In this document: positions 3,002 to 62,729 of the stretch, piece by piece
How the letters are laid out: each line of letters opens with the position of its first letter
Numbering within the stretch: the first letter of the stretch is position 1
Source of the DNA: an uncultured Gammaproteobacteria bacterium
GTDB lineage: Bacteria > Patescibacteriota > Patescibacteriia > Magasanikbacterales > GWA2-37-8
DNA length: 64,000 nt
NCBI GenBank assembly: GCA_964482695.1
Contig: CAYZYP010000002.1
Coordinates: 46,962 to 110,961, forward strand
Direction: 5' to 3'
Notes under the pieces: generated by a model
What the model was told of the DNA's origin: nothing
The model's database searches: none
The model's input: only the letters and a program-made list of their open reading frames with translations
Position numbers and translations under genes: made by a program

Positions 3002-3637
3002 ATGCAGAAAAAGAAGATGAATAGACAATGCGCCATATGTCGACGTGCCGGAGAAAAACTTTTTTTGAAAGGAGAAAAGTGCCAAGGGCCAAAATGTTTG
3101 CTTTTAAAAAGAAATTTTATTCCAGGGCAACATGGTAACAAAAGAAAACATGCCAAACTTTCTGTTTATGGCAAGCAACTAGCCGAAAAGCGCAAAGTAC
3201 AAAAAATTTACGGTTTACGAGAGCGTCAATTTGCCAATTATGTCAAAGAAGCCGCCACTAAAAAAGGCAATACAGGCGAGTATTTATTAAATTTCTTAGA
3301 AGCTAGATTAGATAATGTTGTTTATAGAATAGGATTAGCGTCGTCTCGCCGTATGGCTAGACAAATAACTAACCATGGCCTAATCGCTGTTAATGGCAAA
3401 AAATTAGATGTTCCTTCATATCGTGTTAGAGTTGGCGATATAATAACTGTCAAAGAAACCGCTAAACAAAAAACTTTGTTTAATAAAATTTCCGAAAAAT
3501 TGGCAAAAATAGAAGCAACCAGCTGGTTGGCAGTAGACGCCAAGCAGGTTTCCGCGAAAATGTTAAATGTACCATCGGTTGAAACACCAAGTTTTGATAT
3601 AAAATTGGTAATTGAGTTCTACTCAAGAAAATTGTAA
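3002..3637 (+). CDS. rpsD: 30S ribosomal protein S4 (N-terminal Cys4 zinc-ribbon form)
   Basis: Zinc-ribbon motif CAICRR...CQGPKC followed by NFIPGQHG. The start could alternatively be the Met at 3017. Confidence 0.93.
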   Translation: MQKKKMNRQCAICRRAGEKLFLKGEKCQGPKCLLLKRNFIPGQHGNKRKHAKLSVYGKQLAEKRKVQKIYGLRERQFANYVKEAATKKGNTGEYLLNFLEARLDNVVYRIGLASSRRMARQITNHGLIAVNGKKLDVPSYRVRVGDIITVKETAKQKTLFNKISEKLAKIEATSWLAVDAKQVSAKMLNVPSVETPSFDIKLVIEFYSRKL

Positions 3638-5794: not shown

Positions 5795-7234
5795 ATGTTT
5801 ATGTCTTACTCTGTCGCGCAAAATACATCTTTTTTAACAGTGGCTTCGATTTTACAAAAAATCATTTCTTTTTTTTATTTCGTTTTAATTGCGCGAATCA
5901 TTGGCGTAGAAAGTATTAGCCAATATTTTTTGGCGATTACTTTTTCTTTAATTTTTATAGTTTTCGCTGATTTTGGCTTATCTTCTATTTTAGTTCGTGA
6001 AAGCGCGCGGTATCCCGAAAATACCGAAAGATATTTAAATACTGTTTTATCCACCAAAGTTATTTTCAACCTGTTAACCTATATTTTTTTGCTGGCTACT
6101 GTTAATTTTTTAAATTATTCCGCAGGCACTAAACATTTGATTTATTTAGCTGGCATAACAATGTTTTTCGATAATTTGCACAGCGCTTTTTACGCTGTTT
6201 TTCGCGCGCGAAAGAATCTAATATTCGAATCTATCGGTATAGCTTGTTCGCAAGCTATTACTTTGGTTATTGGCGCTGTTTCTTTGCTAATGGGTTGGCC
6301 TTTATTTATGCTTATCCTTGCTTTTACAATCCCAAGTTGTTTAAATATTTTATATGTCGCCTATTTTGCCGCTAAAAAATTCAAGCTTCGTTATTATTTT
6401 ATTTTTGATTTTAAAATTATTAAAACTTTTTTAATTATGGCTTGGCCGTTTGCTTTAGCGGCGATAATCGGTCGTTTTTACGCTTATAGTGATTCACTGC
6501 TAATGTCCAAAATATTATCAGTTGCCGAACTAGGTTGGTGGAGCGTAGCTTATAAAATTAGCACTGCTTTTCAGTTTGTTCCTGTGGCGCTAGCCGCCAG
6601 TGTTTATCCAGTTTTTAGCAGTCTTTATTTACAGGATAAATTATTGATTAATCAATTATTTGAAAAAACCAGCCGTTATTTATTTTTTATTGTTTTTCCA
6701 ATTGTTTTCGGAATTTTTGTTTTAGCCAAGCCGGCTATTTTGTGGTTATATGGCGAGCAATTTTTACCAGCTGTCTTTCCGCTACAGCTACTGATGATTT
6801 CCTTGATTTTTACTTTTTTAATTTTTATCAACGGTGCTTTGCTTAATGCTATTGATAAACAAAAAATTCAGACAAGCATTACTGCTGGCGCGTTGTTTTT
6901 AAGCATTGTTTTAAATCTTATTTTTTTGCCACGCTTACAGATAGACGGCGCGGCTATTGTCGCTCTATTTACTAATTGTTTATTATTTATTATTGGCTAT
7001 ATCTTTGTAAAATCATATCTAGCTTTGAATTTAAAAAATACATTAGGGTATTTTAACCAAACTTTTTGGCCAGCGCTTATTATGGCTGTCGCGGTATATT
7101 TTTTAGTGGAGAAGATTCATTTTTTATTTACTATTCCAATTGGCGGTGCGATTTATCTGGGTTTGGTATTTTTGCTTGGCGGCATTGATCGAGAGTTGGT
7201 TGTAAGGATAAAAACTAAAATAATAAATAAATAA
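5795..7234 (+). CDS. Polysaccharide/oligosaccharide flippase (Wzx/MurJ-like MOP superfamily), about 12-14 TM
   Basis: 479-aa polytopic membrane protein whose composition and TM layout are typical of the PST family, sitting directly upstream of the GT genes. Confidence 0.65.
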   Translation: MFMSYSVAQNTSFLTVASILQKIISFFYFVLIARIIGVESISQYFLAITFSLIFIVFADFGLSSILVRESARYPENTERYLNTVLSTKVIFNLLTYIFLLATVNFLNYSAGTKHLIYLAGITMFFDNLHSAFYAVFRARKNLIFESIGIACSQAITLVIGAVSLLMGWPLFMLILAFTIPSCLNILYVAYFAAKKFKLRYYFIFDFKIIKTFLIMAWPFALAAIIGRFYAYSDSLLMSKILSVAELGWWSVAYKISTAFQFVPVALAASVYPVFSSLYLQDKLLINQLFEKTSRYLFFIVFPIVFGIFVLAKPAILWLYGEQFLPAVFPLQLLMISLIFTFLIFINGALLNAIDKQKIQTSITAGALFLSIVLNLIFLPRLQIDGAAIVALFTNCLLFIIGYIFVKSYLALNLKNTLGYFNQTFWPALIMAVAVYFLVEKIHFLFTIPIGGAIYLGLVFLLGGIDRELVVRIKTKIINK

Positions 7235-9202: not shown

Positions 9203-9260
9203 ACATTCTTTTTCGCGCTGCGGACTTCGCCGCGACTGCGAAAAAGAATGTTTATGCGCC
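9194..9260. terminator. Bidirectional palindrome shared by the converging GT2 and ligase-like genes
   Basis: 23-bp arms GGCGCATAAACATTCTTTTTCGC / GCGAAAAAGAATGTTTATGCGCC around a 21-nt GC-rich loop. Each arm also encodes the terminal Gly-Ala-stop of one of the two genes. Confidence 0.55.
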
Positions 9261-10706
9261 TTTTAAGTCGTAACTAATTTTAGTCATTATTGCCGTTAGT
9301 AGAATAATTCCCAAAACATGAAATAAAGCCGGTGAAGTGAGATTGATAATCAAAAGAGAAATAAGCATTGCTAAAATATATCTTTTATTTTTAATCCTAT
9401 ATTTTTTTAATATTAAAAATAAAAGATTAAAAATAAAAGATAACCAAATCAAAAATCCAACCATTCCCATTTCATCAATTATTTCCAAATACCCCCAGTC
9501 AAATTGAGTAGTGGTGATTTCTTTCTTAACGACTGGGCTATAGACAGTAACCGTGTCTCCCAAACCATTTCCCCAAAGTGGTTTTTGTTTTATTTTCTCC
9601 CAAATTTTTGGCAGTAGCATCATTCTTGATAGGGAGCTTTTTTCTATTGAAGGCGAGGCAATACTGCCAATTCGTAAGCCTAATAATTCCCAACCAAAAC
9701 TTTGTCCTCGGCTGGCGGCTAAATGAATAGATGAGAAAATTAAGATAAAAATAAAAATAGAACCAAGAGAATAAATAAGCCAGCGTTTCCAATATTGACG
9801 ACTAAATAAAAATAATAATCCGATCAAATAGGCTAGAATGTAAATACGAGTGAGGTTGAGAGAGAAAATGATAAGTAAAGACAAGATAATAAAATGATAA
9901 AATATTTTATCATTTTTGTCATCCCGAGCCACAGCGAGGGATCTCTGTCCGTTCACATAAGTATAGTTGGTATTTGTAGACAGAGATTCCTCGCTTCGCT
10001 CGGAATGACAGTCCTGTCTTGCAACTATTTGATAAATAAAATACAACAACACCGGCACTAACAACAAATGTTCATTAACTACCATCCGGTAAAAATTATT
10101 ATTTAAGTCAGTTATTTTGCCGCCAACAATATTTCTAAACCAATGATAATAGCTATCTTGCAACACTAAAATGTCAGAAGAATAGCTAATAAAAGTCAGT
10201 AAAACAAAAATTACATTGCCGATAATAGCCGCGCCGAGCATGGCAAAAGCCGTTTGTTTGAATTTTTCCGAATGCCATAACTCACATAAAGGAAAATAAT
10301 ACAAAAAGAAAAAATAGGGGATAGCGTCGGCAAAAATTTGGTGTGGATTATGGCCAGCATAATAACCAAGAGTAGAAGAAATAAAAACGATTAATAAAAT
10401 AGCTGAAAAAAGATAACAGATGATCTTGCTGTCTTTAAAAATTGTTTTGTATTTTTTATTATTTATTATCTGTATTGTATAAATTATTAATGAACAAATT
10501 AACAATAACGTTCTTAATGATGTCGAGTTAATGCTAAAAACCCCGCCCGCCCCGCCCAAAATAATTTCACCGGCAATAATATACCAACCACGTTCGTCTT
10601 TTTTTAAAAGTAAGTAAACAGTTGTGGCGAGTATAATAAAAGATAGAAAATAATTTATATACGACATTTCCGGGCTAAAAAAATACGAAAAAAGACGTGT
10701 GAACAC
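9252..10706 (-). CDS. O-antigen ligase/polymerase-like (Wzy_C-type) polytopic membrane protein carrying an in-frame palindromic-element insertion
   Basis: 484 aa, many TM helices, with a periplasmic-loop motif ...WGNGLGDT... resembling Wzy_C. The segment QDCHSERSEESLSTNTNYTYVNGQRSLAVARDDKNDK is encoded by repeat copy A. Confidence 0.55.
   Translation of the reverse strand: MFTRLFSYFFSPEMSYINYFLSFIILATTVYLLLKKDERGWYIIAGEIILGGAGGVFSINSTSLRTLLLICSLIIYTIQIINNKKYKTIFKDSKIICYLFSAILLIVFISSTLGYYAGHNPHQIFADAIPYFFFLYYFPLCELWHSEKFKQTAFAMLGAAIIGNVIFVLLTFISYSSDILVLQDSYYHWFRNIVGGKITDLNNNFYRMVVNEHLLLVPVLLYFIYQIVARQDCHSERSEESLSTNTNYTYVNGQRSLAVARDDKNDKIFYHFIILSLLIIFSLNLTRIYILAYLIGLLFLFSRQYWKRWLIYSLGSIFIFILIFSSIHLAASRGQSFGWELLGLRIGSIASPSIEKSSLSRMMLLPKIWEKIKQKPLWGNGLGDTVTVYSPVVKKEITTTQFDWGYLEIIDEMGMVGFLIWLSFIFNLLFLILKKYRIKNKRYILAMLISLLIINLTSPALFHVLGIILLTAIMTKISYDLKGA
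9918..10011. repeat. RPE-like palindromic element, copy A (full), in-frame inside the ligase-like CDS
   Basis: Left arm GTCATCCCGAGCCACAGCGAGGGATCTCTGTC, ~30-nt loop, right arm GACAGAGATTCCTCGCTTCGCTCGGAATGAC; homologous to the copies at 26855 and 11441. Confidence 0.8.
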
Positions 10707-10749: not shown

Positions 10750-11685
10750 TTATAATTTAAAATTATTAAGCTGCTTGTACCCGTTTATAAAATCCTTTGC
10801 TTTCATTGGCTTTTTTCCTTCCATTTGTAATTCTAAAATTTCTATACAGCCGCTATTACAACCGATAAAAATCTTTTCATCTTTATAAACCACTATCTTG
10901 TTTTCTATTTTTGCCTCGGATGGTTTGATTCTTAACAATTTTAATCTTTGATTTTTTACCTCTATATATATTCCCGGCCAAGGCGTTAACCCCCTGTATT
11001 GATTATAAATTTCCTGGGCTGTTTTATTAAAATCAACCAAGCCGTCTTCGCGCTTCAATATCTTGCAAAATGTAGCTTTTTTGTCATCTTGTGGTTTGGG
11101 GGAAATCTTACCGTCTACATAGGCTGGAATAGTGTTTAAAAGCATTTCAGAGGCCATTTTAGCGGCTTTAGCGTGTAAAGTGGTATAAGTGTCATCTGGC
11201 TCAATATTAAGCGTTTTTTGCGCCAAAATCGGCCCATGATCCATTTTTGCGTCAATGAGCATTATACTAACTCCGGTCTGGCTTTCACCATTTATTAAAA
11301 CCGATTGAATAGGCGATGGGCCGCGATATAAGGGGAGTAGAGAAGGATGAATATTGATAGACCCATGTTTGGGAATGTCTATTATATTTTGTGGAATAAG
11401 TAAGCCATAATCTACCACAATGTTTAAATCAATTTTTTTTGTCATCCCGAGGAGGTTCGCACCGACGAGGGATCTCTGTAATTTTTCCGGTTGCTCTATT
11501 TGCAAACCATGTTTTTGAGCCAAAAGTTTTACTGGTGGCAGTTGCAACTCTTGTTTACGCCCAACCGGCTTATCTGGTTGGGTAATAACTAGTTCAACCT
11601 TAACCAAAGGATTATTTATTAACCCTTGTAAAATCACAGTCGCGAAATCACCAGTACCAAAAAAGATGATGCTTATTTTTGTCAT
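10750..11685 (-). CDS. fmt: Methionyl-tRNA formyltransferase, with a short in-frame insertion from a half palindromic element
   Basis: Contains IIFFGTGDFA, HGSINIHPSLLPLYRGPSPIQ and the C-terminal domain. QRSLVGANLLGMTKK in the interdomain linker is encoded by repeat copy B. Confidence 0.92.
   Translation of the reverse strand: MTKISIIFFGTGDFATVILQGLINNPLVKVELVITQPDKPVGRKQELQLPPVKLLAQKHGLQIEQPEKLQRSLVGANLLGMTKKIDLNIVVDYGLLIPQNIIDIPKHGSINIHPSLLPLYRGPSPIQSVLINGESQTGVSIMLIDAKMDHGPILAQKTLNIEPDDTYTTLHAKAAKMASEMLLNTIPAYVDGKISPKPQDDKKATFCKILKREDGLVDFNKTAQEIYNQYRGLTPWPGIYIEVKNQRLKLLRIKPSEAKIENKIVVYKDEKIFIGCNSGCIEILELQMEGKKPMKAKDFINGYKQLNNFKL
11441..11479. repeat. RPE-like palindromic element, copy B (solo left arm) inside fmt
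   Basis: GTCATCCCGAGGAGGTTCGCACCGACGAGGGATCTCTGT is near-identical to the left arm of copy C; no right arm follows. Confidence 0.75.
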
Positions 11686-11752
11686 ATTTTTTAATATTTA
11701 TCAGGGCGGGACATTTCCCGCCCCTACAATTATATCATGTGAATAAAAATAT

Positions 11753-11781
11753 TGACAATTATCGGTTTCAAAGGTATCTTT
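11753..11781 (+). promoter_or_regulatory. Sigma70-like promoter at the left edge of the GC-rich island
   Basis: TTGACA, 17-nt spacer, TATCTT, followed by GGAGGTG (Shine-Dalgarno) and a GTG start. Confidence 0.35.
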
Positions 11782-11808
11782 TACCCAACCAACAACTGGA
11801 GGTGTGAA

Positions 11809-12192
11809 GTGAATAAAAAGCCTGTGTTAGTAGATTGGAAAGAGGCGTACGTAGAGCATGGGGGGCTACTTGTAGTCCCTATCCGCTCCGGAGATGGGAT
11901 GTACCTCGGGGAGCTTCGACTCCAGATGCACGAGAGGAGAACTTCTACCTCGCAGTCGCAACACTGGCATGGGAACATGGATGCCGGCGGCATCTGTATC
12001 ACCCCCGACGAGGAGGCTGCCCGCCGAGCAGCCACCCCGGACTCTGTGCGGCGGGAGGTTGGCCAGTTCGACCCTCCCACCCCCCCTACCATCAGCCCCA
12101 AGGTCGAGGACGCCCTCGACGCCGATCTGGCAAACGGTCCCACGCTTGAGGCCGTACCCTCCGGCCTCAAAGGCGATCCCAGCGGGATCTAG
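11809..12192 (+). CDS. Hypothetical protein encoded in a GC-rich (about 65%) foreign-looking island; no recognisable family
   Basis: GTG start 7 nt after GGAGG. The frame has strongly G/C-biased third positions (GC3) in its distal two-thirds, whereas the overlapping ORFs on both strands lack this. Product: VNKKPVLVDWKEAYVEHGGLLVVPIRSGDGMYLGELRLQMHE...GDPSGI. Confidence 0.45.
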   Translation: MNKKPVLVDWKEAYVEHGGLLVVPIRSGDGMYLGELRLQMHERRTSTSQSQHWHGNMDAGGICITPDEEAARRAATPDSVRREVGQFDPPTPPTISPKVEDALDADLANGPTLEAVPSGLKGDPSGI

Positions 12193-12307
12193 CCCCCCCC
12201 TCCGCTCCCACCCCCACGGTGAGAGCGCGCCCTTCGACTCTCACTAACCATAAATTTTAAAATAATTTAAAGTTTATGGCTAAGAGTCGAAGAAAAAAAG
12301 TTAAAAT

Positions 12308-12349: not shown

Positions 12350-12457
12350 TTTACGCGTCACGCCAGCGGAAAACACTTTTTGAGCGTTCCCGACTTGTTC
12401 GGGACGATTCAAAAAGTTTTTTCCGCTGGCGCAAGGAATAACATTTACGCGTATTTT
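12350..12457. repeat. Long-hairpin repeat family, copy a (conserved tail abuts the def stop codon)
   Basis: Left CTTTACGCGTCACGCCAGCGGAAAACACTTTTTGA, inner hairpin, right TCAAAAAGTTTTTTCCGCTGGCGCAAGGAATAACATTTACGCGTATTTTT. Confidence 0.7.
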
Positions 12458-12968: not shown

Positions 12969-13138
12969 GCCAACGGAAATTAGGTACTAAATTTCTGTCG
13001 GCAATGGAAGCCCTCGGGAGGGCGACTGAGCGAACTCATAAACCGAGATTTTTTGATTGACGTTGAAGCGAAGGAGTCTTGCCGACAGAAATTTAGTACC
13101 TAATTTCCGTTGGCGCGATGGATATAATTTACGCGCGC
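12969..13138. repeat. Long-hairpin repeat family, copy b (34-bp perfect stem, 74-nt loop, conserved tail)
   Basis: Stem CCAACGGAAATTAGGTACTAAATTTCTGTCGGCAA / TTGCCGACAGAAATTTAGTACCTAATTTCCGTTGG, then tail CGCGATGGATATAATTTACGCGCGC. Confidence 0.7.
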
Positions 13139-18619: not shown

Positions 18620-18650
18620 TATAAAAATAATTTATCATTATACATATACA

Positions 18651-18790
18651 TTCTCAGCATTAAATTATTTTTAGACACATCAATTTTGCCCAGCGGCAAA
18701 ATTAACTTAAGTGCTCGGCAAAAATCCCGACTAACGTCGGGACCATGCATTTTTGCCTCGCAAACTCTAAAAATAATTTAATGCTGAGAA
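18651..18790. repeat. Nested-palindrome structured repeat, copy 1 (about 96-nt conserved core inside a locus-specific 22-bp inverted repeat)
   Basis: Outer arms TTCTCAGCATTAAATTATTTTT / AAAAATAATTTAATGCTGAGAA. The core TAGACACATCAATTTTGCCCAGCGGCAAAATTAACTTAAGTGCTCGGCAAAAATCCCGACTAACGTCGGGACCATGCATTTTTGCCTCGCAAACTCT contains two sub-hairpins. Confidence 0.8.
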
Positions 18791-18808
18791 TGTAATTAAA
18801 CAAAAAAT

Positions 18809-22611: not shown

Positions 22612-23002
22612 TTATATTAAAAAATTTTACAGATAATATTTTTTTGTGGATAACTTCCATTGACCAAGAATAACTTTTCATCTAAACTATCTTTAGTTCT
22701 TTCAAATATATCAAGAGCGGTGCGAGGGAATCGGCCCGACAACCACCCAGCAACCCCCAAAGCGGGGGTGCTAATTCCGAACCCTAAATACAGGGAAAGA
22801 TAAGTTTTGTCTTGTCTACCCGCCTCTGGCGGAGACAAGGCAAAAAACGCTTTTTTAAAAAGGCCTTTTACTCTTTCTTTGTGATATATTTAGGGTAAAG
22901 GGCTTTTTTGTTTTATTATGTAAAAATTGTATTTCCATTCATAGACGGTTTAAGAATTAAAACAATTTAATTTTTAAACCGTCTATGACGGAAGGAGAAG
23001 AA

Positions 23003-23771: not shown

Positions 23772-24914
23772 ATGAATCTAATAATCCACCCAGACGAACT
23801 ATTTCTTAAAGGCGCTAATCAGCGCTTGTTTTACGATCAATTAATTAATAATTTAAAGCAAATATTTAAACAAATAAAAGTTGAAAGAACAGAAAGCGGT
23901 TTGTGGGTAGAAAATTTTGAAGAAAATAAACTAAGTCAATTAGCCAAAGTTCCTGGTATTTCCAATTTCGCGGTAGGGGAGAGAGGGGGAAATGGAGTGG
24001 AGGAAATAAAGAAAAATGTTTTAAATTTATTGAAACAAATGTCTCGGGATGACAAAGATGCTGTAACTTTTCGCGTTACTACCACTCGTTCCTATAAAGG
24101 TTACCCACTATCTTCCAAACAGCTAGACATAGAAATTGGCGATTTTGTGCGACAAAAATACGGTTGGCAAGTTAATTTAAAAAATTACGATTTAAACATC
24201 TCTGTTAATATTGGCAAAGAGAATGCCACAGTCTATTCAAATCCAATTGAAGGTGCTGGCGGCCTGCCAACTGGTGTTTCTGGCAAAATGCTTTGTCTTT
24301 TGTCCGGTGGCATAGACAGCCCGGTGGCGGCCTATAAAATGATGACTAGGGGCGCGGAAGTAGGTTTGATTCATTTTCAAAATCAAACCTCGGTTACAGA
24401 CGAAGTGAGCGAGAAAATTTTTGATTTAGCCAAAATATTATCTTTATACCAGTCTAAAATTAAAATTTTCATTATTCCTTTTGCTGATCTTCAAAAACAA
24501 GTAGTGATGAGTATTCCGGCCGAATATCGCATGCTTGTAACACGTCGCTTATTTTTTAAAATAGCCGAAAATATTGCCAAAAACAATAATTACCAAGCAC
24601 TAATAACTGGCGATAGCCTTGGTCAAGTGGCTTCACAAACAGTAGAAAACCTAACTGTTACCAGCCAAGCGGTGGAAATGTTAAAATTTTCACCATTGAT
24701 TGGTGCTAATAAAAAAGATATAATGGAGATGGCAAAACAAATCGGCACTTACGAAATATCTACCAGGCCATACGAAGATTGTTGCAGTTTATTTGTCGCC
24801 AAACATCCACAAACCAGAGCAAAAATAAATGACGTTTTAAAACTAGAAAAAAATCTATCTTTGCCGGATCTTGACAAAACAACCTTTAAATCATACTATA
24901 TTAGTAATAATTAG
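23772..24914 (+). CDS. thiI: tRNA 4-thiouridine(8) synthase / thiamine sulfur-carrier adenylyltransferase ThiI
   Basis: THUMP-like N-terminus and PP-loop SGGIDSP. Start chosen at MNLIIHPDELFLKG; the ORF track gives 23736. Confidence 0.88.
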   Translation: MNLIIHPDELFLKGANQRLFYDQLINNLKQIFKQIKVERTESGLWVENFEENKLSQLAKVPGISNFAVGERGGNGVEEIKKNVLNLLKQMSRDDKDAVTFRVTTTRSYKGYPLSSKQLDIEIGDFVRQKYGWQVNLKNYDLNISVNIGKENATVYSNPIEGAGGLPTGVSGKMLCLLSGGIDSPVAAYKMMTRGAEVGLIHFQNQTSVTDEVSEKIFDLAKILSLYQSKIKIFIIPFADLQKQVVMSIPAEYRMLVTRRLFFKIAENIAKNNNYQALITGDSLGQVASQTVENLTVTSQAVEMLKFSPLIGANKKDIMEMAKQIGTYEISTRPYEDCCSLFVAKHPQTRAKINDVLKLEKNLSLPDLDKTTFKSYYISNN

Positions 24915-25946: not shown

Positions 25947-27305
25947 ATGCTACCAAAACCTAAAAAAATTCGTCAAATTTATTTAGACCACGCCGCAACT
26001 ACCTACACAGAGAAAGAAGTGCTTGATGCCATGTTGCCCTATTTTAACCAAAAATACGGCAACCCATCTTCTTTATACAATACAGGCAGAGAAGCCAACG
26101 GAGAGATAAATAATGCCAGACGAATGGTAGCGCGCATAATCCATGCTTTACCAGAAAATATTATTTTTACTGGTAGTGGCACAGAATCCGATAACCTGGC
26201 AATTTACGGTATTGCCCGCGCCCACGAACAAAAAGGCAAACATATTATTTCTTCCCCCATAGAGCATCACGCTGTGCTGTATCCGCTAGAAGATTTGAAA
26301 AAACAAGGTTGGGAAATTACTTACACAAAGGTGGATAAAAAAGGTTTTGTTGATGCTAAAGAAATTATCAAAAATATTAAAAAAGATACTGTTTTAATTA
26401 CAGTAATGTACGCCAACAATGAAATAGGCACCATAGAATCAATAGCCGAAATCGGCCGGGAAATTTTAAAAATTCGTAAACAAAATAATTCGCCGTATCC
26501 TTATTTTCATACCGATGCTTGTCAGGCAGCCGGCTACTGCGATTTGGATGTCGAGAAACTACACGTAGATTTGATGACAATCAATGGCAGTAAAATTTAC
26601 GGCCCAAAGGGGGTTGGCATGTTGTATCTGCGACGTGGTGTTAAAATTAAACCGCTGATATTGGGTGGCTCGCAAGAAAAGAAATTGCGCGCTGGCACGG
26701 AAAATGTGCCCGGTATAGTGGGGTTTGCCAAAGCTTTTGAAATGGCGCAAAAGAATAGAGAAAAAGAAAGCGCGCGAGTCGCTGGTTTACGAGATTATCT
26801 TTGGCAAAGGATTGAAAAAGAAATTTCAGACGTTCGTCTCAACGGCCCAGTTTTGTCATCCCGAGGAGGTTCGCACCGACGAGGGATCTCTGTCCCGTCG
26901 GACAGTAGGCGACCAGACAGAGATTCCTCACCCTGCGATGGGTTCGGAATGACAAAAACGGATTTTCGTGAATTCTGCAATGACAGTGAACGACTACCTA
27001 ATAATCTCAACGTCACATTCATGAACGTGGAAGGTGAAGCCATGCTCCTATATTTAGATGAATATGGTGTGATGTGTTCCACCGGTTCGGCCTGCACTTC
27101 GGATTCACTAGATCCATCACATGTCTTAACTGCTATCGGATTACCATACGAATACGCTCATGGAAGTTTGCGTTTTAGTTTAGGAAAACGCAACACCAAA
27201 CAAGATATTGATTATTTGATGAAATATTTGCCAAAAATAGTAGAGACTTTGCGCGAAATGTCGCCAGTGAATATGGGGGTTAAAAAACATGCTAAATACA
27301 AATAA
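25947..27305 (+). CDS. iscS: Cysteine desulfurase (IscS/NifS class I) carrying a ~46-aa in-frame insertion from a palindromic element
   Basis: PLP-Lys region SGSKIYGPKG and the active-site loop SGSACTS. The segment VLSSRGGSHRRGISVPSDSRRPDRDSSPCDGFGMTKTDFREFCNDS is inserted between LNGP and ERLPNNLNVTF. Confidence 0.9.
   Translation: MLPKPKKIRQIYLDHAATTYTEKEVLDAMLPYFNQKYGNPSSLYNTGREANGEINNARRMVARIIHALPENIIFTGSGTESDNLAIYGIARAHEQKGKHIISSPIEHHAVLYPLEDLKKQGWEITYTKVDKKGFVDAKEIIKNIKKDTVLITVMYANNEIGTIESIAEIGREILKIRKQNNSPYPYFHTDACQAAGYCDLDVEKLHVDLMTINGSKIYGPKGVGMLYLRRGVKIKPLILGGSQEKKLRAGTENVPGIVGFAKAFEMAQKNREKESARVAGLRDYLWQRIEKEISDVRLNGPVLSSRGGSHRRGISVPSDSRRPDRDSSPCDGFGMTKTDFREFCNDSERLPNNLNVTFMNVEGEAMLLYLDEYGVMCSTGSACTSDSLDPSHVLTAIGLPYEYAHGSLRFSLGKRNTKQDIDYLMKYLPKIVETLREMSPVNMGVKKHAKYK
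26855..26953. repeat. RPE-like palindromic element, copy C (full), in-frame inside iscS
   Basis: Left arm GTCATCCCGAGGAGGTTCGCACCGACGAGGGATCTCTGTC, loop, right arm GACAGAGATTCCTCACCCTGCGATGGGTTCGGAATGAC. Confidence 0.85.
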
Positions 27306-30562: not shown

Positions 30563-30608
30563 TTCTTTTTTCGCTGACGCAAGGAATATAATTTTACTCG
30601 TATTTTTT
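30563..30608. repeat. Long-hairpin repeat family, copy d (solo conserved tail only)
   Basis: TTTTTTCGCTGACGCAAGGAATATAATTTTACTCGTATTTTTT matches the tail of copy a at about 85% identity. Confidence 0.6.
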
Positions 30609-33122: not shown

Positions 33123-33285
33123 CTTTTACGGTGCACCAACGAACAATATATCTTTTTTAGAAAAAAAGTAGTCGGAAAACTTTTTGCCGTAGTGAAACGT
33201 AGGCAAAAAGGCAAACGGATAACTGCTTTTTTTCTAAAAAAGATATATTGTTCGTTGGTGCGATGAATTACGTTTACGCATATTC
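33123..33285. repeat. Long-hairpin repeat family, copy c (35-bp perfect stem plus conserved tail) between atpB and atpE
   Basis: Stem CACCAACGAACAATATATCTTTTTTAGAAAAAAAG / rc, then tail CGATGAATTACGTTTACGCATATTC; the left flank CTTTTACGGTG resembles copy a. Confidence 0.7.
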
Positions 33286-39336: not shown

Positions 39337-39484
39337 TAGACATTCATATTTATCTATTACTAGACACATAGATTTTGCCCAGCGGCAAAATCTATTCAAG
39401 TGCTCGACAAAAATTTTTTCCTTCGGGAAAAAACCATGCATTTTTGCCTCGCAAGCTCTAATAATAGATGAATATGAATGTCTA
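39337..39484. repeat. Nested-palindrome structured repeat, copy 2
   Basis: Outer arms TAGACATTCATATTTATCTATTA / TAATAGATGAATATGAATGTCTA around the core TAGACACATAGATTTTGCCCAGCGGCAAAATCTATTCAAGTGCTCGACAAAAATTTTTTCCTTCGGGAAAAAACCATGCATTTTTGCCTCGCAAGCTCT. Confidence 0.8.
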
Positions 39485-41994: not shown

Positions 41995-42000
41995 AAATAA

Positions 42001-42073
42001 AGCGGGAAGCTGGATTTGAACCAGCGACATCGAGTTTAAAAACTCGCGCTCTGCCATGCTGAGCTATTCCCGC
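42001..42073 (-). tRNA. tRNA with glycine-type acceptor stem and U73 discriminator but a noncanonical anticodon loop (CGAG-TTTTTAAA-CTCG); identity uncertain
   Basis: Hand-folded: acceptor GCGGGAA/TTCCCGC plus discriminator T (identical to the E. coli tRNA-Gly acceptor), D arm GCTC-AGCATGGCA-GAGC, T arm GCTGG-TTCAAAT-CCAGC. The anticodon arm folds only as a 5-bp stem with a 6-nt loop, or a 4-bp stem with an 8-nt loop. Confidence 0.6.
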
Positions 42074-42120
42074 CTAACATAAAAATTTATATCATTTTTT
42101 AGTGATCTAGTCAAGCATCT

Positions 42121-61095: not shown

Positions 61096-61126
61096 AAGTT
61101 TTATAATTTTTATAATTTGTTGATAA

Positions 61127-61259
61127 TATCTTTTTTTGGAGTTTGCGAGGCAAAATTGCACGGCTCCCCGACTCAGTCGGGGAAATTTTGTCGAGCACTT
61201 AAGTCAATTTTGTCGCTGGACAAAATTGACGTGTCTAAAAAAAGATGTTATCAACAAAT
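61127..61259. repeat. Nested-palindrome structured repeat, copy 3 (reverse orientation); the outer right arm overlaps the last codons of gltX
   Basis: Outer arms TTTGTTGATAATATCTTTTTTT / AAAAAAAGATGTTATCAACAAA around the reverse complement of the same ~90-nt core. Confidence 0.8.
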
Positions 61260-62729
61260 ATTAAATTTTTTAACTGCTGATTTTATTCTTCGTAAACTTT
61301 CTTCTTTGCCAAGAACATCGGCTATTTCAAATGGCCCGGGAGATTTTTCTAAACCAGACAAAATTACTCTAAATGGCCACAAAACACTGCCATTATTATA
61401 GCCATTTTCTTTTACCCACTCCCCTATTCGTTTTTTTAGGATATCTTTGTTCCATTCTTTTTCACTAAAACTATCTAGTAAATTTTCTAAAGCTGGTAAA
61501 ATTTCCTTTAATTCGTTAGCAGAACTTTTTTTCCAAATCAATAATTCTGGCTGATAATCCGGCAATTTAAATATAAACTCTATCGCGCTCGGCAATTCGG
61601 ATAAAATCGCTATCCGTTCTCTTTCCAAAGACACTGCTTTGGTTAACAATTCACTTTTTTCAGCTATTTTTTCTAACCATGGCCAAGCTTTTTCTACCAA
61701 TTCGCTATCACTCAACTTCTTGATATATTGTTTATTATACCACGCTAGCTTATCCATGTTAAATATCGCACCAGCTTTGCCCACTTTTTCCAAATCAAAC
61801 TCACTCACCAGCTCTTTTAAAGTAAACAATTCCCTATCATCACCGGGATTCCAACCTAAAAAGGCGACAAAATTAATTAACGCTTCTGGCAAATAACCTT
61901 TTTTAATATAATCTTCTACCGCCACATCGCCTTGACGCTTGCTTAACTTTGATTTATCTGAATTAAGTAGTAGTGGCAGGTGTGCCATTTGAGGAATTTC
62001 CCAACCAAAATATTTGTAAAGCTGAATATGTTTTGGCACGCTTGAAATCCATTCTTCACCGCGAATAATGTGTGATACTTCCATTAGATGATCGTCGACA
62101 ACAACTGCAAGATGATAAGTTGGGTAACCATCCGATTTTAAAATAACTTGATCATCAATTAATTCATTTTTAATTTTTACTTCACCGCGAATCAGATCTT
62201 TAAAAATAGTTTCGCCGGTTTTTGGCATTTTCATTCGCACGACGTATTTTCCACCAGCAGAAATTCTTTTTTTAGCTTCTTCTAAATTTATTTCACGACA
62301 ATGGCCATCATAGCCGGTAGGCAATTTTTTCTTTTGCTGGCGATCACGTAATTCTGTTAATCTTTCGGGAGTACAAAAACAATAATAGGCGTGGCCTTTT
62401 TCTAAAAGCTCGTTAACATATTTTTTATAAATATCTAATCGTTCTGATTGGATGTACGAACCGTTTTCCCCTTCTTGTATTGTTTGGCACTCCCCTGTTG
62501 ACTCATAATCTAATTTTACTCCTTCATCTGGCATGATGCCTGCCCAATAAAGAGATTTTAAAATATTAGTAACACCATCAGCTACAAAACGTTCGCGATC
62601 GGTATCTTCAATTCGTAATAAAAACTTACCACCATTTTTTTTGGCGAATAAATATGAATACAGCGCGGTGCGCAGACCGCCTATGTGCAAGTAACCGGTT
62701 GGGCTGGGGGCAAAACGAGTTTTAATCAT
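61251..62729 (-). CDS. gltX: Glutamyl-tRNA synthetase
   Basis: Motifs RFAPSPTGYLHIGG (HIGH) and KLSKR (KMSKS). Confidence 0.95.
   Translation of the reverse strand: MIKTRFAPSPTGYLHIGGLRTALYSYLFAKKNGGKFLLRIEDTDRERFVADGVTNILKSLYWAGIMPDEGVKLDYESTGECQTIQEGENGSYIQSERLDIYKKYVNELLEKGHAYYCFCTPERLTELRDRQQKKKLPTGYDGHCREINLEEAKKRISAGGKYVVRMKMPKTGETIFKDLIRGEVKIKNELIDDQVILKSDGYPTYHLAVVVDDHLMEVSHIIRGEEWISSVPKHIQLYKYFGWEIPQMAHLPLLLNSDKSKLSKRQGDVAVEDYIKKGYLPEALINFVAFLGWNPGDDRELFTLKELVSEFDLEKVGKAGAIFNMDKLAWYNKQYIKKLSDSELVEKAWPWLEKIAEKSELLTKAVSLERERIAILSELPSAIEFIFKLPDYQPELLIWKKSSANELKEILPALENLLDSFSEKEWNKDILKKRIGEWVKENGYNNGSVLWPFRVILSGLEKSPGPFEIADVLGKEESLRRIKSAVKKFNIC

Follow-up and report, generated by a model that had tools for sequence, protein, structure and literature searches.

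In-frame copies of a small hairpin repeat, probably of the CGTC-REP/SRM family, in three conserved genes of a Candidatus Magasanikbacteria genome

Palindromic repeats that are read in frame within unrelated, often essential genes were reportedly described by Ogata and colleagues in 2000 and 2002 as the Rickettsia palindromic elements (RPE), of which RPE-1 is a longer, distinct element, and the REPINs and REP-RAYT systems are said to go back to Nunvar in 2010 and to Bertels and Rainey in 2011. A further group, the CGTC-tagged REPs (families CGTC-1 to -4), was found in five phyla and has no dedicated transposase (Di Nocera, De Gregorio and Rocco 2013, PMC3733652). The tag of these repeats is sometimes TGTC (or CCTC), the first stem pairs are AT, the tail is of 3 nt, and the dimers are mostly head-to-head, with the tags outside and spacers of 20-100 nt (PMC3733652). 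CGTC-1 has been equated with dRS3 of Neisseria, RPE-6 and RPE-4 of R. conorii with CGTC-1 and CGTC-4, respectively, and CGTC and GTAG REPs lying in frame within genes were catalogued in 2013, the dimers encoding 20-30 amino acids (aa) (PMC3733652). Here, a 64-kb window, which is the whole stretch of DNA that was analysed, from a metagenome-assembled contig of an ultra-small groundwater bacterium, Candidatus Magasanikbacteria, in the Candidate Phyla Radiation (CPR), turned out to carry three in-frame insertions (A, B and C) that are probably copies of a single small DNA hairpin repeat of mobile type, belonging to the family formed by the CGTC-tagged REPs and the Ssn-related motifs (SRM).

The SRM are known from work on the repeat NTS of Neisseria (CGTCATTCCCGCGMAVGCGGGAATCYRG), an extended dRS3; NTS and SRM flank ssnA, the gene for a 94-aa single-domain GIY-YIG nuclease (PMC11893778). 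Binding by SsnA requires the hairpin to be single-stranded DNA and is restricted to one strand; cleavage, too, is specific to single-stranded DNA and falls a few nucleotides upstream, 5' of the tag in published members of the family. In NTS, the three bases GTC upstream of the palindrome, together with the C that follows, are the critical positions (PMC11893778). A motif flanks 71% of ssn homologues, and the genomes rich in SRM include those of Rickettsia and Wolbachia (PMC11893778). In N. meningitidis, 2% of the NTS copies lie within genes and natural transformation is modulated by NTS/SsnA; the mobility of NTS-ssn-NTS units and of the repeats was left open by the published work (PMC11893778).

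Five arms of one 33-42-nt hairpin unit are present in the window, arranged as two palindromes of ~100 nt (A and C) and a solo arm (B). An earlier note, made from the sequence of this stretch, had reported three copies of a palindrome at these places and inside open reading frames (ORFs) with the frame preserved, and both statements were borne out for all three copies, the limits of which are now those given in Table 1. A covariance model, R1, made of 34 copies (two being the arms of copy A and the remaining 32 coming from other genomes) identified exactly five arms over the 64 kb, with E values of 1e-10 to 4.8e-6, and no other convincing match; a weak match in fmt (11079-11111, E = 0.15) was taken as chance. 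Likewise, the 11-mer GTCATCCCGAG occurs five times when at most one mismatch is allowed, against 0.2 occurrences expected in the window. All five arms read TGTC-AT... and lie within long ORFs that keep their frame on read-through, and their G+C content is 50-57% in a window of ~35% overall. Copy B and the left arm of copy C, previously described as near-identical over 38 nt, are in fact identical at 43 of 43 nt (11437-11479 and 26851-26893; family D15), and an extended tail, CTCTGTC, is common to A, B and C, which together mark a subfamily specific to this genome and fit spread within it.

Palindromes A and C fold far better than shuffled sequences (z -4.7 to -7.5; -7.1 and -7.5 for A, -4.7 and -6.8 for C), which the solo arm B alone does not. 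Copy C reads TTTTGTCATCCCGAG...GGGATCTCTGTC and then, after a centre of 21 nt, GACAGAGATTCC...CGGAATGACAAAA; copy A shares its outer and inner stems, which there enclose an unrelated AT-rich centre of 29 nt. The peptides predicted from the reading frame include GISVPSDSR and DSSPCDGFGMTK, and the insert peptides had no match in NCBIfam, which would cover any RPE domain models. A full-text search of the literature with the arm sequence returned unrelated primers only. An intein or intron was considered and set aside, as the inserts are of 33-47 aa, have no Rfam match and are read straight through in frame.

In the cysteine desulfurase, IscS, alignment with PDB chains (HMMER) breaks at residue 300 and resumes at 337-346, and the best 119 database homologues, mostly from Candidatus Magasanikbacteria/Patescibacteria, are of ~400-433 aa, typically ~410 aa, a length of 452 aa being recorded only for the identical protein. 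Between LNGP and RLPNNLN there are 47 residues in the window protein and 5-6 in 16 close orthologues, in which the junction is canonical (LNGPEIGxKRLPNNLN); the net gain is ~41 aa, of which ~33-36 aa are encoded by the element. The insertion between LNGP and ERLPNNLNVTF that the earlier note had put at 46 codons is therefore real, with its size revised to these values. In the closest relative, P0002, the syntenic locus (L292; ThiI-RNaseH-like-Rrf2-IscS-NifU) has an empty site, CTAAACGGTCCTGAAATTGGACTTAGGACTCGTCTGCCC, with no R1 match. Three further orthologues (P0003, P0005 and P0014) have other short inserts at this loop, which are AT-rich, unrelated to the repeat and without an R1 match. The insert follows the last strand of the large PLP domain and precedes the first strand of the C-terminal domain, corresponding to residues ~291-297 of E. 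coli IscS (PDB mapping of query residue 302 to chain residue 293, plus a manual residue count) rather than to the vicinity of residue 260 as first suggested. In an AlphaFold2 model built on the orthologue alignment (mean pLDDT 67.6), residues 305-350 fall below 50 and have no regular structure save a short helix at 337-345, and the insert is thus predicted to be disordered.

The Wzy_C/O-antigen-ligase-like protein, to which copy A was said to add ~32 codons, is ~35 aa longer than 12 orthologues lacking the segment, and most alignments with its 824 relatives split at query residues ~230-270; unrelated inserts are present at this site in P0367 and P0378. In Fmt, the arm supplies 14 codons and the net gain is +5-6 aa over CPR orthologues (+2 aa over solved Fmt structures), so ~8 native codons have been replaced. 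The site, at residues 68-83, is in the N-terminal formyltransferase domain, whereas ~13 codons added to the inter-domain linker had been proposed, and unrelated inserts occur there in P0266 and P0259. The flanks on either side of each copy form one continuous, otherwise intact gene. The view that the host genes are otherwise intact and the segments lineage-specific thus stands, the closest orthologues lacking both the IscS segment (+41 aa) and the Wzy segment (+35 aa). Fmt (311 aa) and IscS (452 aa) were each recorded in identical form from JGI, ENA and NCBI assemblies.

Table 1. Hairpin copies, their arms, host genes and possible remnants in the 64-kb window
Feature	Position	Strand	Details
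IscS/NifS-type cysteine desulfurase	25947-27305	+	452 aa; PF00266; PDB matches, E = 1e-122
Methionyl-tRNA formyltransferase (fmt)	10750-11685	-	PF00551 + PF02911; PDB matches
Wzy_C/O-antigen-ligase-like membrane protein	9252-10706	-	PF04932
Copy A	9914-10013		Tags-outside (head-to-head) dimer; read on minus strand in Wzy_C/O-antigen-ligase-like gene; encodes ...ARQDCHSERSEESLSTNTNYTYVNGQRSLAVARDDKND...
Copy A, left arm	9914-9947	+	TTTT-GTC-ATCCC-GA-GCCACAGC-GA-GGGAT-CTCTG; R1 38.6 bits, E = 2.2e-8
Copy A, right arm	9981-10013	-	Minus-strand CTGTCATTCCGAGCGAAGCGAGGAATCTCTG = family consensus with GCGAAGC mini-hairpin; R1 47.1 bits, E = 1e-10
Copy B	11437-11479	+ (fmt itself minus strand)	Solo arm; encodes QRSLVGANLLGMTK, Fmt residues ~69-82; R1 E = 4.8e-6
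Copy C	26851-26957		Head-to-head dimer in IscS gene, read on plus strand; encodes VLSSRGGSHRRGISVPSDSRRPDRDSSPCDGFGMTK
Copy C, left arm	26851-26892	+	15-nt apical hairpin GAGGTTCGCACCGAC; R1 E = 4.8e-6
Copy C, right arm	26918-26957	-	Minus-strand TTTTGTCATTCCGA-ACCCATCGCAGGGT-GAGGAATCTCTG; R1 E = 4.2e-6
Eleven extra codons, TDFREFCNDSE	26958-26990	+	3' of copy C; also absent from orthologues (alignment A1)
Possible relic in ThiI	24034-24057	-	13-nt element terminus TTGTCATCCCGAG at 24041-24053, exact match; encodes ..SRDDK..

The unit has a core of 25-34 nt, GTC - ATYCC - GA - small hairpin - GA - GGRAT - CTC, made up of a 5' YGTC tag (TGTC in the window), a covarying 5-bp stem with A-T and T-A as its first pairs (ATYCC/GGRAT), conserved tandem G.A/A.G, a variable apical mini-hairpin and an unpaired C(TC) tail. 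The AT...AT of the stem does not vary in alignment A4 or among the window arms; the GTC and the C that follows GGRAT are invariant. When one genome per GTDB species was scanned with the pattern GTCATYCCGAN{5,18}GAGGRATCTC, at least 120 stretches matched, from genomes of most bacterial phyla. Among the matches listed, the bearers belong to Chloroflexota, Acidobacteriota, Bacteroidota, Verrucomicrobiota, Planctomycetota, Gemmatimonadota, Firmicutes, several proteobacterial classes and Bdellovibrionota, and, besides three CPR lineages other than the one studied here, include one Nanoarchaeota bin. In the same listed matches, the Y/R stem position, at which pairing was not forced by the pattern, is T/A in 111, C/G in 45, T/G in one and C/A in none, and the apical segment is nearly always a mini-hairpin of its own, commonly GCGAAGC, a very stable one, or GCGNAGC. 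Of 145 copies, 76% have T and 19% have C at position -1, which makes the tag YGTC.

Close pairs in the genome sample have the tags outside in 14 cases and inside in two. In low-GC genomes the unit is usually intergenic, only ~3 of 47 matches being inside a spanning ORF, and at three other CPR loci it is intergenic or in doubtful ORFs; that all five arms are intragenic here may be due simply to the very high density of coding sequence in this genome. A Komeilibacteria (CPR) locus, L019, carries at least four copies in 8 kb (1114-1212, 3174-3228, 6564-6597), among them a head-to-head dimer that sits at the 5' end of an ORF of 250 aa, indicating that the family is present in several CPR classes. 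In a Dehalococcoidia metagenome-assembled genome (L081, 6431-6468) the unit is read through (...LLDCHSERSAAEPRNLSG...) within a 557-aa ORF that resembles a phage terminase large subunit, and in-frame copies may thus occur in other phyla and in prophage genes. The unit was also found on 84 viral stretches (IMG/VR). All copies are co-oriented on many of these contigs (8:0, 7:0, 6:0, 5:0...; e.g. L206, L214, L224, L227, L250, L276, L278), and four of the five copies on L276 are spaced regularly at ~230 nt.

At two loci with widely spaced inverted units, the pair was found to bracket a small GIY-YIG ORF. In one, from Kiritimatiellae (L014), the motif end ...GGAATCTC abuts the ATG of this ORF, and in the other, from Bacteroidales (L112), the copies lie ~150 nt upstream and ~100 nt downstream of it. 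The bracketed protein belongs to Pfam PF01541 (GIY-YIG, E = 4e-16) with a weak PDB match to the UPF0213 protein 1zg2, and its homologues are single-domain GIY-YIG proteins of ~100-130 aa. The C-terminal tails of many homologues are translated from the downstream motif (...DSSLRSE-stop, ...LGMT...; alignment A2), as many ssn-type ORFs extend into the inverted hairpin downstream of them, where the TGA in GGAATGAC ends the frame (e.g. L014, 5061-5087).

A set of 80 metagenomic ssn-homologue loci was scanned with a covariation-aware pattern allowing at most one mismatch. A canonically oriented copy adjoins 40 of the 80 genes, on both sides in 25 of the 40, and the 185 kb of these loci contain 126 pattern matches, against ~0.03 per shuffled 64-kb window. 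Twelve loci were missed by a stricter pattern, and most of these have further stem variants, such as ATTGC/GCAAT, ATCTC/GAGAT and ATTTC/GAAAT (by eye, in unconstrained ssn flanks). Overall, the tandem-GA unit is present in 44 of the 80 loci and a motif of the published pattern in four. No ssn ORF was found near the unit on the motif-bearing viral loci that were searched. Judged from its placement around these genes, small GIY-YIG (Ssn-type) nucleases probably have this unit as their DNA partner; this, and the fact that each palindrome is built from two copies of a smaller structured unit, had been missed in the earlier note.

The view that A, B and C are copies of one mobile-type repeat is carried by the membership of all arms in one family, the absence of the segments from orthologues, the position in variable loops that are predicted to be disordered, and the preservation of the frame. 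Palindromes A and C would be non-autonomous head-to-head dimers derived from motif-ssn-motif units, and may have arrived by trans-mobilisation on single-stranded DNA, by analogy with the relation of REPINs to RAYTs. Copies would survive only where they are in frame, stop-free and in permissive loops, and the translated segments would have no function of their own. Copy B could have arisen by insertion of a dimer or an arm, followed by an in-frame deletion that removed the ~8 native codons.

Several points weigh against this account. GIY-YIG nucleases act by hydrolysis of DNA, no strand-transfer activity being known for them, and transposition of SRM dimers is not known to have been shown. An ssn/GIY-YIG gene was found neither in the 64-kb window nor in ~9 kb beyond it (L203) nor in the relatives' loci, so a partner enzyme in this genome is unproven. 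Only three sites were seen, all within the window, and translation of the inserts is a prediction from ORFs. The stems of published CGTC REPs are continuous, of 8-9 bp with loops of 4-5 nt, a test which the window arms fail. Finally, the published SRM pattern, HGTCWYN(0-2)YYVSBRHN(0-5)WNVSBRGN(0-2)RNCYNB, which matches the NTS control, matches no window arm, nor the variant consensus, nor any of the 126 tandem-GA matches.

One alternative is that the hairpins, rather than being neutral relics, are kept because the host uses them, whether to modulate how single-stranded DNA is taken up or recombined, through an action of the RNA, or as functional peptide modules. The modulation of natural transformation by NTS/SsnA in N. 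meningitidis, the strong conservation of sequence and structure across phyla and the co-orientation of copies on many viral contigs are in keeping with such a use. However, close orthologues of each of the three genes lack the inserts, which are therefore dispensable, disorder is predicted for the IscS insert, the three genes have unrelated functions, and the unit is usually intergenic in low-GC genomes. At the RNA level, no meaningful Rfam family was found for the window (gathering thresholds) or the element (E <= 10), only chance miRNA-like hairpins. Retention for host use is thus considered unlikely.

A GTAG-type REP or REPIN mobilised by a RAYT, or a MITE derived from an insertion sequence (IS) with terminal inverted repeats and target-site duplications, would share the build of the element, i.e. 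an inverted doublet of a small hairpin forming a long hairpin, and various transposases have been suggested as possible mobilisers of CGTC elements (PMC3733652). However, the tag is TGTC/CGTC and not GTAG, and A, B and C all lack a flanking direct target-site duplication, the TTTT/AAAA at copy C being inverted and hence part of the palindrome. The gene bracketed by the variant encodes a GIY-YIG nuclease rather than a Y1 transposase, and no transposase Pfam family was found in 21 kb of called genes around IscS. An origin of this kind is therefore regarded as improbable.

That the extra segments are ordinary lineage-specific variable loops with no repeat element could be argued from the length variation at all three sites, each of which has unrelated inserts in two or three of the orthologues named above. 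Identity at the nucleotide level and recurrence in other genomes refute this reading: fmt and IscS, which are unrelated genes, share 43 of 43 nt, five R1 matches have E <= 5e-6, and the unit recurs in at least 120 stretches from other genomes. The arms also stand out in G+C from the window, and the orthologues' own inserts have no R1 match, leaving almost no room for this explanation. It is scarcely credible that the insertions arose as artefacts of metagenome assembly or through chimeric joins at repeats, as might be suspected because the source is a metagenome-assembled contig and a neighbouring JGI contig past the right end of the window mixes bacterial and archaeal-type genes, since the flanks of each copy form one continuous gene and the recovery of identical IscS and Fmt from JGI, ENA and NCBI assemblies argues against it.

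Two possible remnants of the repeat were noted in the window. The reverse complement of the eleven extra codons 3' of copy C starts CTGTCATTGC... and is by eye suggestive of an arm, and no R1 match was obtained there at E <= 10; the codons could represent a lineage-specific loop or a decayed third arm. The 13-nt fragment in ThiI (R1 E = 0.13), where ThiI is +1 to +3 aa relative to its relatives, is ambiguous as a relic of the element.

Other features of the window were recorded. Between fmt and def there is a GC-rich island of ~440 nt (11790-12230; 42-45% G+C in 1-kb bins) with a 146-aa ORF on the plus strand (11752-12192) and no Rfam family, which looks like foreign DNA. A second, unrelated family of long near-perfect palindromes (12361-12446, 12969-13130, 30566-30594 and 33133-33275; D1, I3, I4, I21) has the common motif TTCCGCTGGCG/GCCAACGGAAA and possibly represents terminators or another repeat. 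A third repeat family, of ~130-170 nt, has three copies, one of them inverted (18647-18794, 39348-39473 and 61101-61273; D5, D17, I1, I2, I6, I14), and the inverted-repeat termini of at least two copies suggest a MITE-like or small RNA gene family. Rfam identified a SAM-I riboswitch (22705-22806, 55.6 bits) and, adjoining tRNA-Val, a tRNA at 42000-42074 (59.9 bits) that ARAGORN reports as 'tRNA-???' with anticodon 'tt' and that may have an unusual anticodon loop. The JGI contig that continues past the right end of the window (L203) encodes ClpB and then archaeal/eukaryotic-type genes (Ribosomal_L21e and a weak Rpb4 match) in its positions 1-2000, a mix that could be due to a chimeric assembly or to gene transfer.

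The kind of phenomenon seen here is already known, CGTC-REP/SRM hairpins with in-frame intragenic copies having been described. What appears to be new is the occurrence in a CPR host, a tandem-GA variant that is widespread, has a GIY-YIG clade of its own and escapes the published patterns, and clean filled and empty sites; a literature search found no link between Patescibacteria and REPs, MITEs or Ssn. The earlier impression of novelty is overstated, given the 2013 catalogue of in-frame intragenic copies, and only the host and the variant appear undescribed. As the tandem-GA variant is present in 44 of 80 ssn loci and the published pattern matches none of its copies, surveys of Ssn targets and of enzyme/site pairs for single-stranded DNA tools would miss a large clade. 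For annotation, many junk ORFs are accounted for by the repeats, as are unusual C-terminal tails (e.g. ...DSSLRSE and ...LGMT). A site that is filled here and empty in the closest syntenic relative, in a highly conserved gene, also bears on mobility. It is conceivable, though we hold it doubtful, that the tandem-GA hairpin and its GIY-YIG clade form a distinct pan-bacterial, phage-borne branch of Ssn/SRM with dimers that are mobile in trans, and that the filled and empty CPR sites are the first clean natural evidence of de novo SRM-dimer insertion into naive targets. If so, essential proteins of genome-reduced bacteria would gain new peptide segments in this way.

Compared with the CGTC REPs, the unit has the same CGTC/TGTC terminal tag, A-T, T-A stem start and short unpaired tail, and both occur mostly as head-to-head dimers, in several phyla and with some copies inside ORFs. 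The window unit differs in its 5-bp stem, tandem G.A and variable apical hairpin of 7-15 nt, and in its tail, which is CTC rather than CCA; in its short form, the unit can be read as nine positions with two mismatches. The published hosts are Proteobacteria, Chlorobi, Bacteroidetes, Spirochaetes and Thermotogae, whereas the host here belongs to the CPR, and no partner enzyme was known for the CGTC REPs in 2013, whereas a GIY-YIG gene is bracketed by the tandem-GA unit. With SRM/NTS it shares the frame GTCATTCC...GGAATC, oriented with GTC upstream and C after the palindrome, a wide phylogenetic spread and, in the variant family though not in this window, inverted copies that bracket a single-domain GIY-YIG gene of ~100 aa. 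However, NTS is rarely intragenic (2% in N. meningitidis), whereas five of the five window arms are. As in REPINs, an inverted doublet of a small hairpin is the replicative-looking unit, singlets are decay products and the enzyme gene is hairpin-flanked, but REPINs have a GTAG tag and a Y1 HUH transposase with a covalent intermediate in place of the YGTC tag and hydrolytic GIY-YIG nuclease found here.

The shared frame, tag, tail C, dimer layout and GIY-YIG association place the window arms with the CGTC-REP/SRM superfamily, of which the unit is a tandem-GA variant. The likeness to RPE was the central claim of the earlier note, in which the palindromes were seen as selfish elements surviving as extra peptides, and it is supported by the absence of the segments from orthologues, the dispersal of the unit across phyla and the predicted disorder of the IscS insert. 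In RPE too, palindromes lie in frame in conserved genes, are absent from orthologues and are tolerated in loops, whereas the host phylum and the sequence variant differ, and the insert peptides match no RPE model. As the superfamily already holds RPE-4 and RPE-6, reported as CGTC-tagged REPs, together with intragenic copies, the analogy is correct, and through the equation of these two RPE with CGTC REPs by Di Nocera (2013) it appears to be more than an analogy. The protein-coding palindromes of Rickettsia, the CGTC-tagged REPs and the Ssn nucleases acting on single-stranded DNA, three separate literatures, are thereby joined and extended to the Candidate Phyla Radiation.

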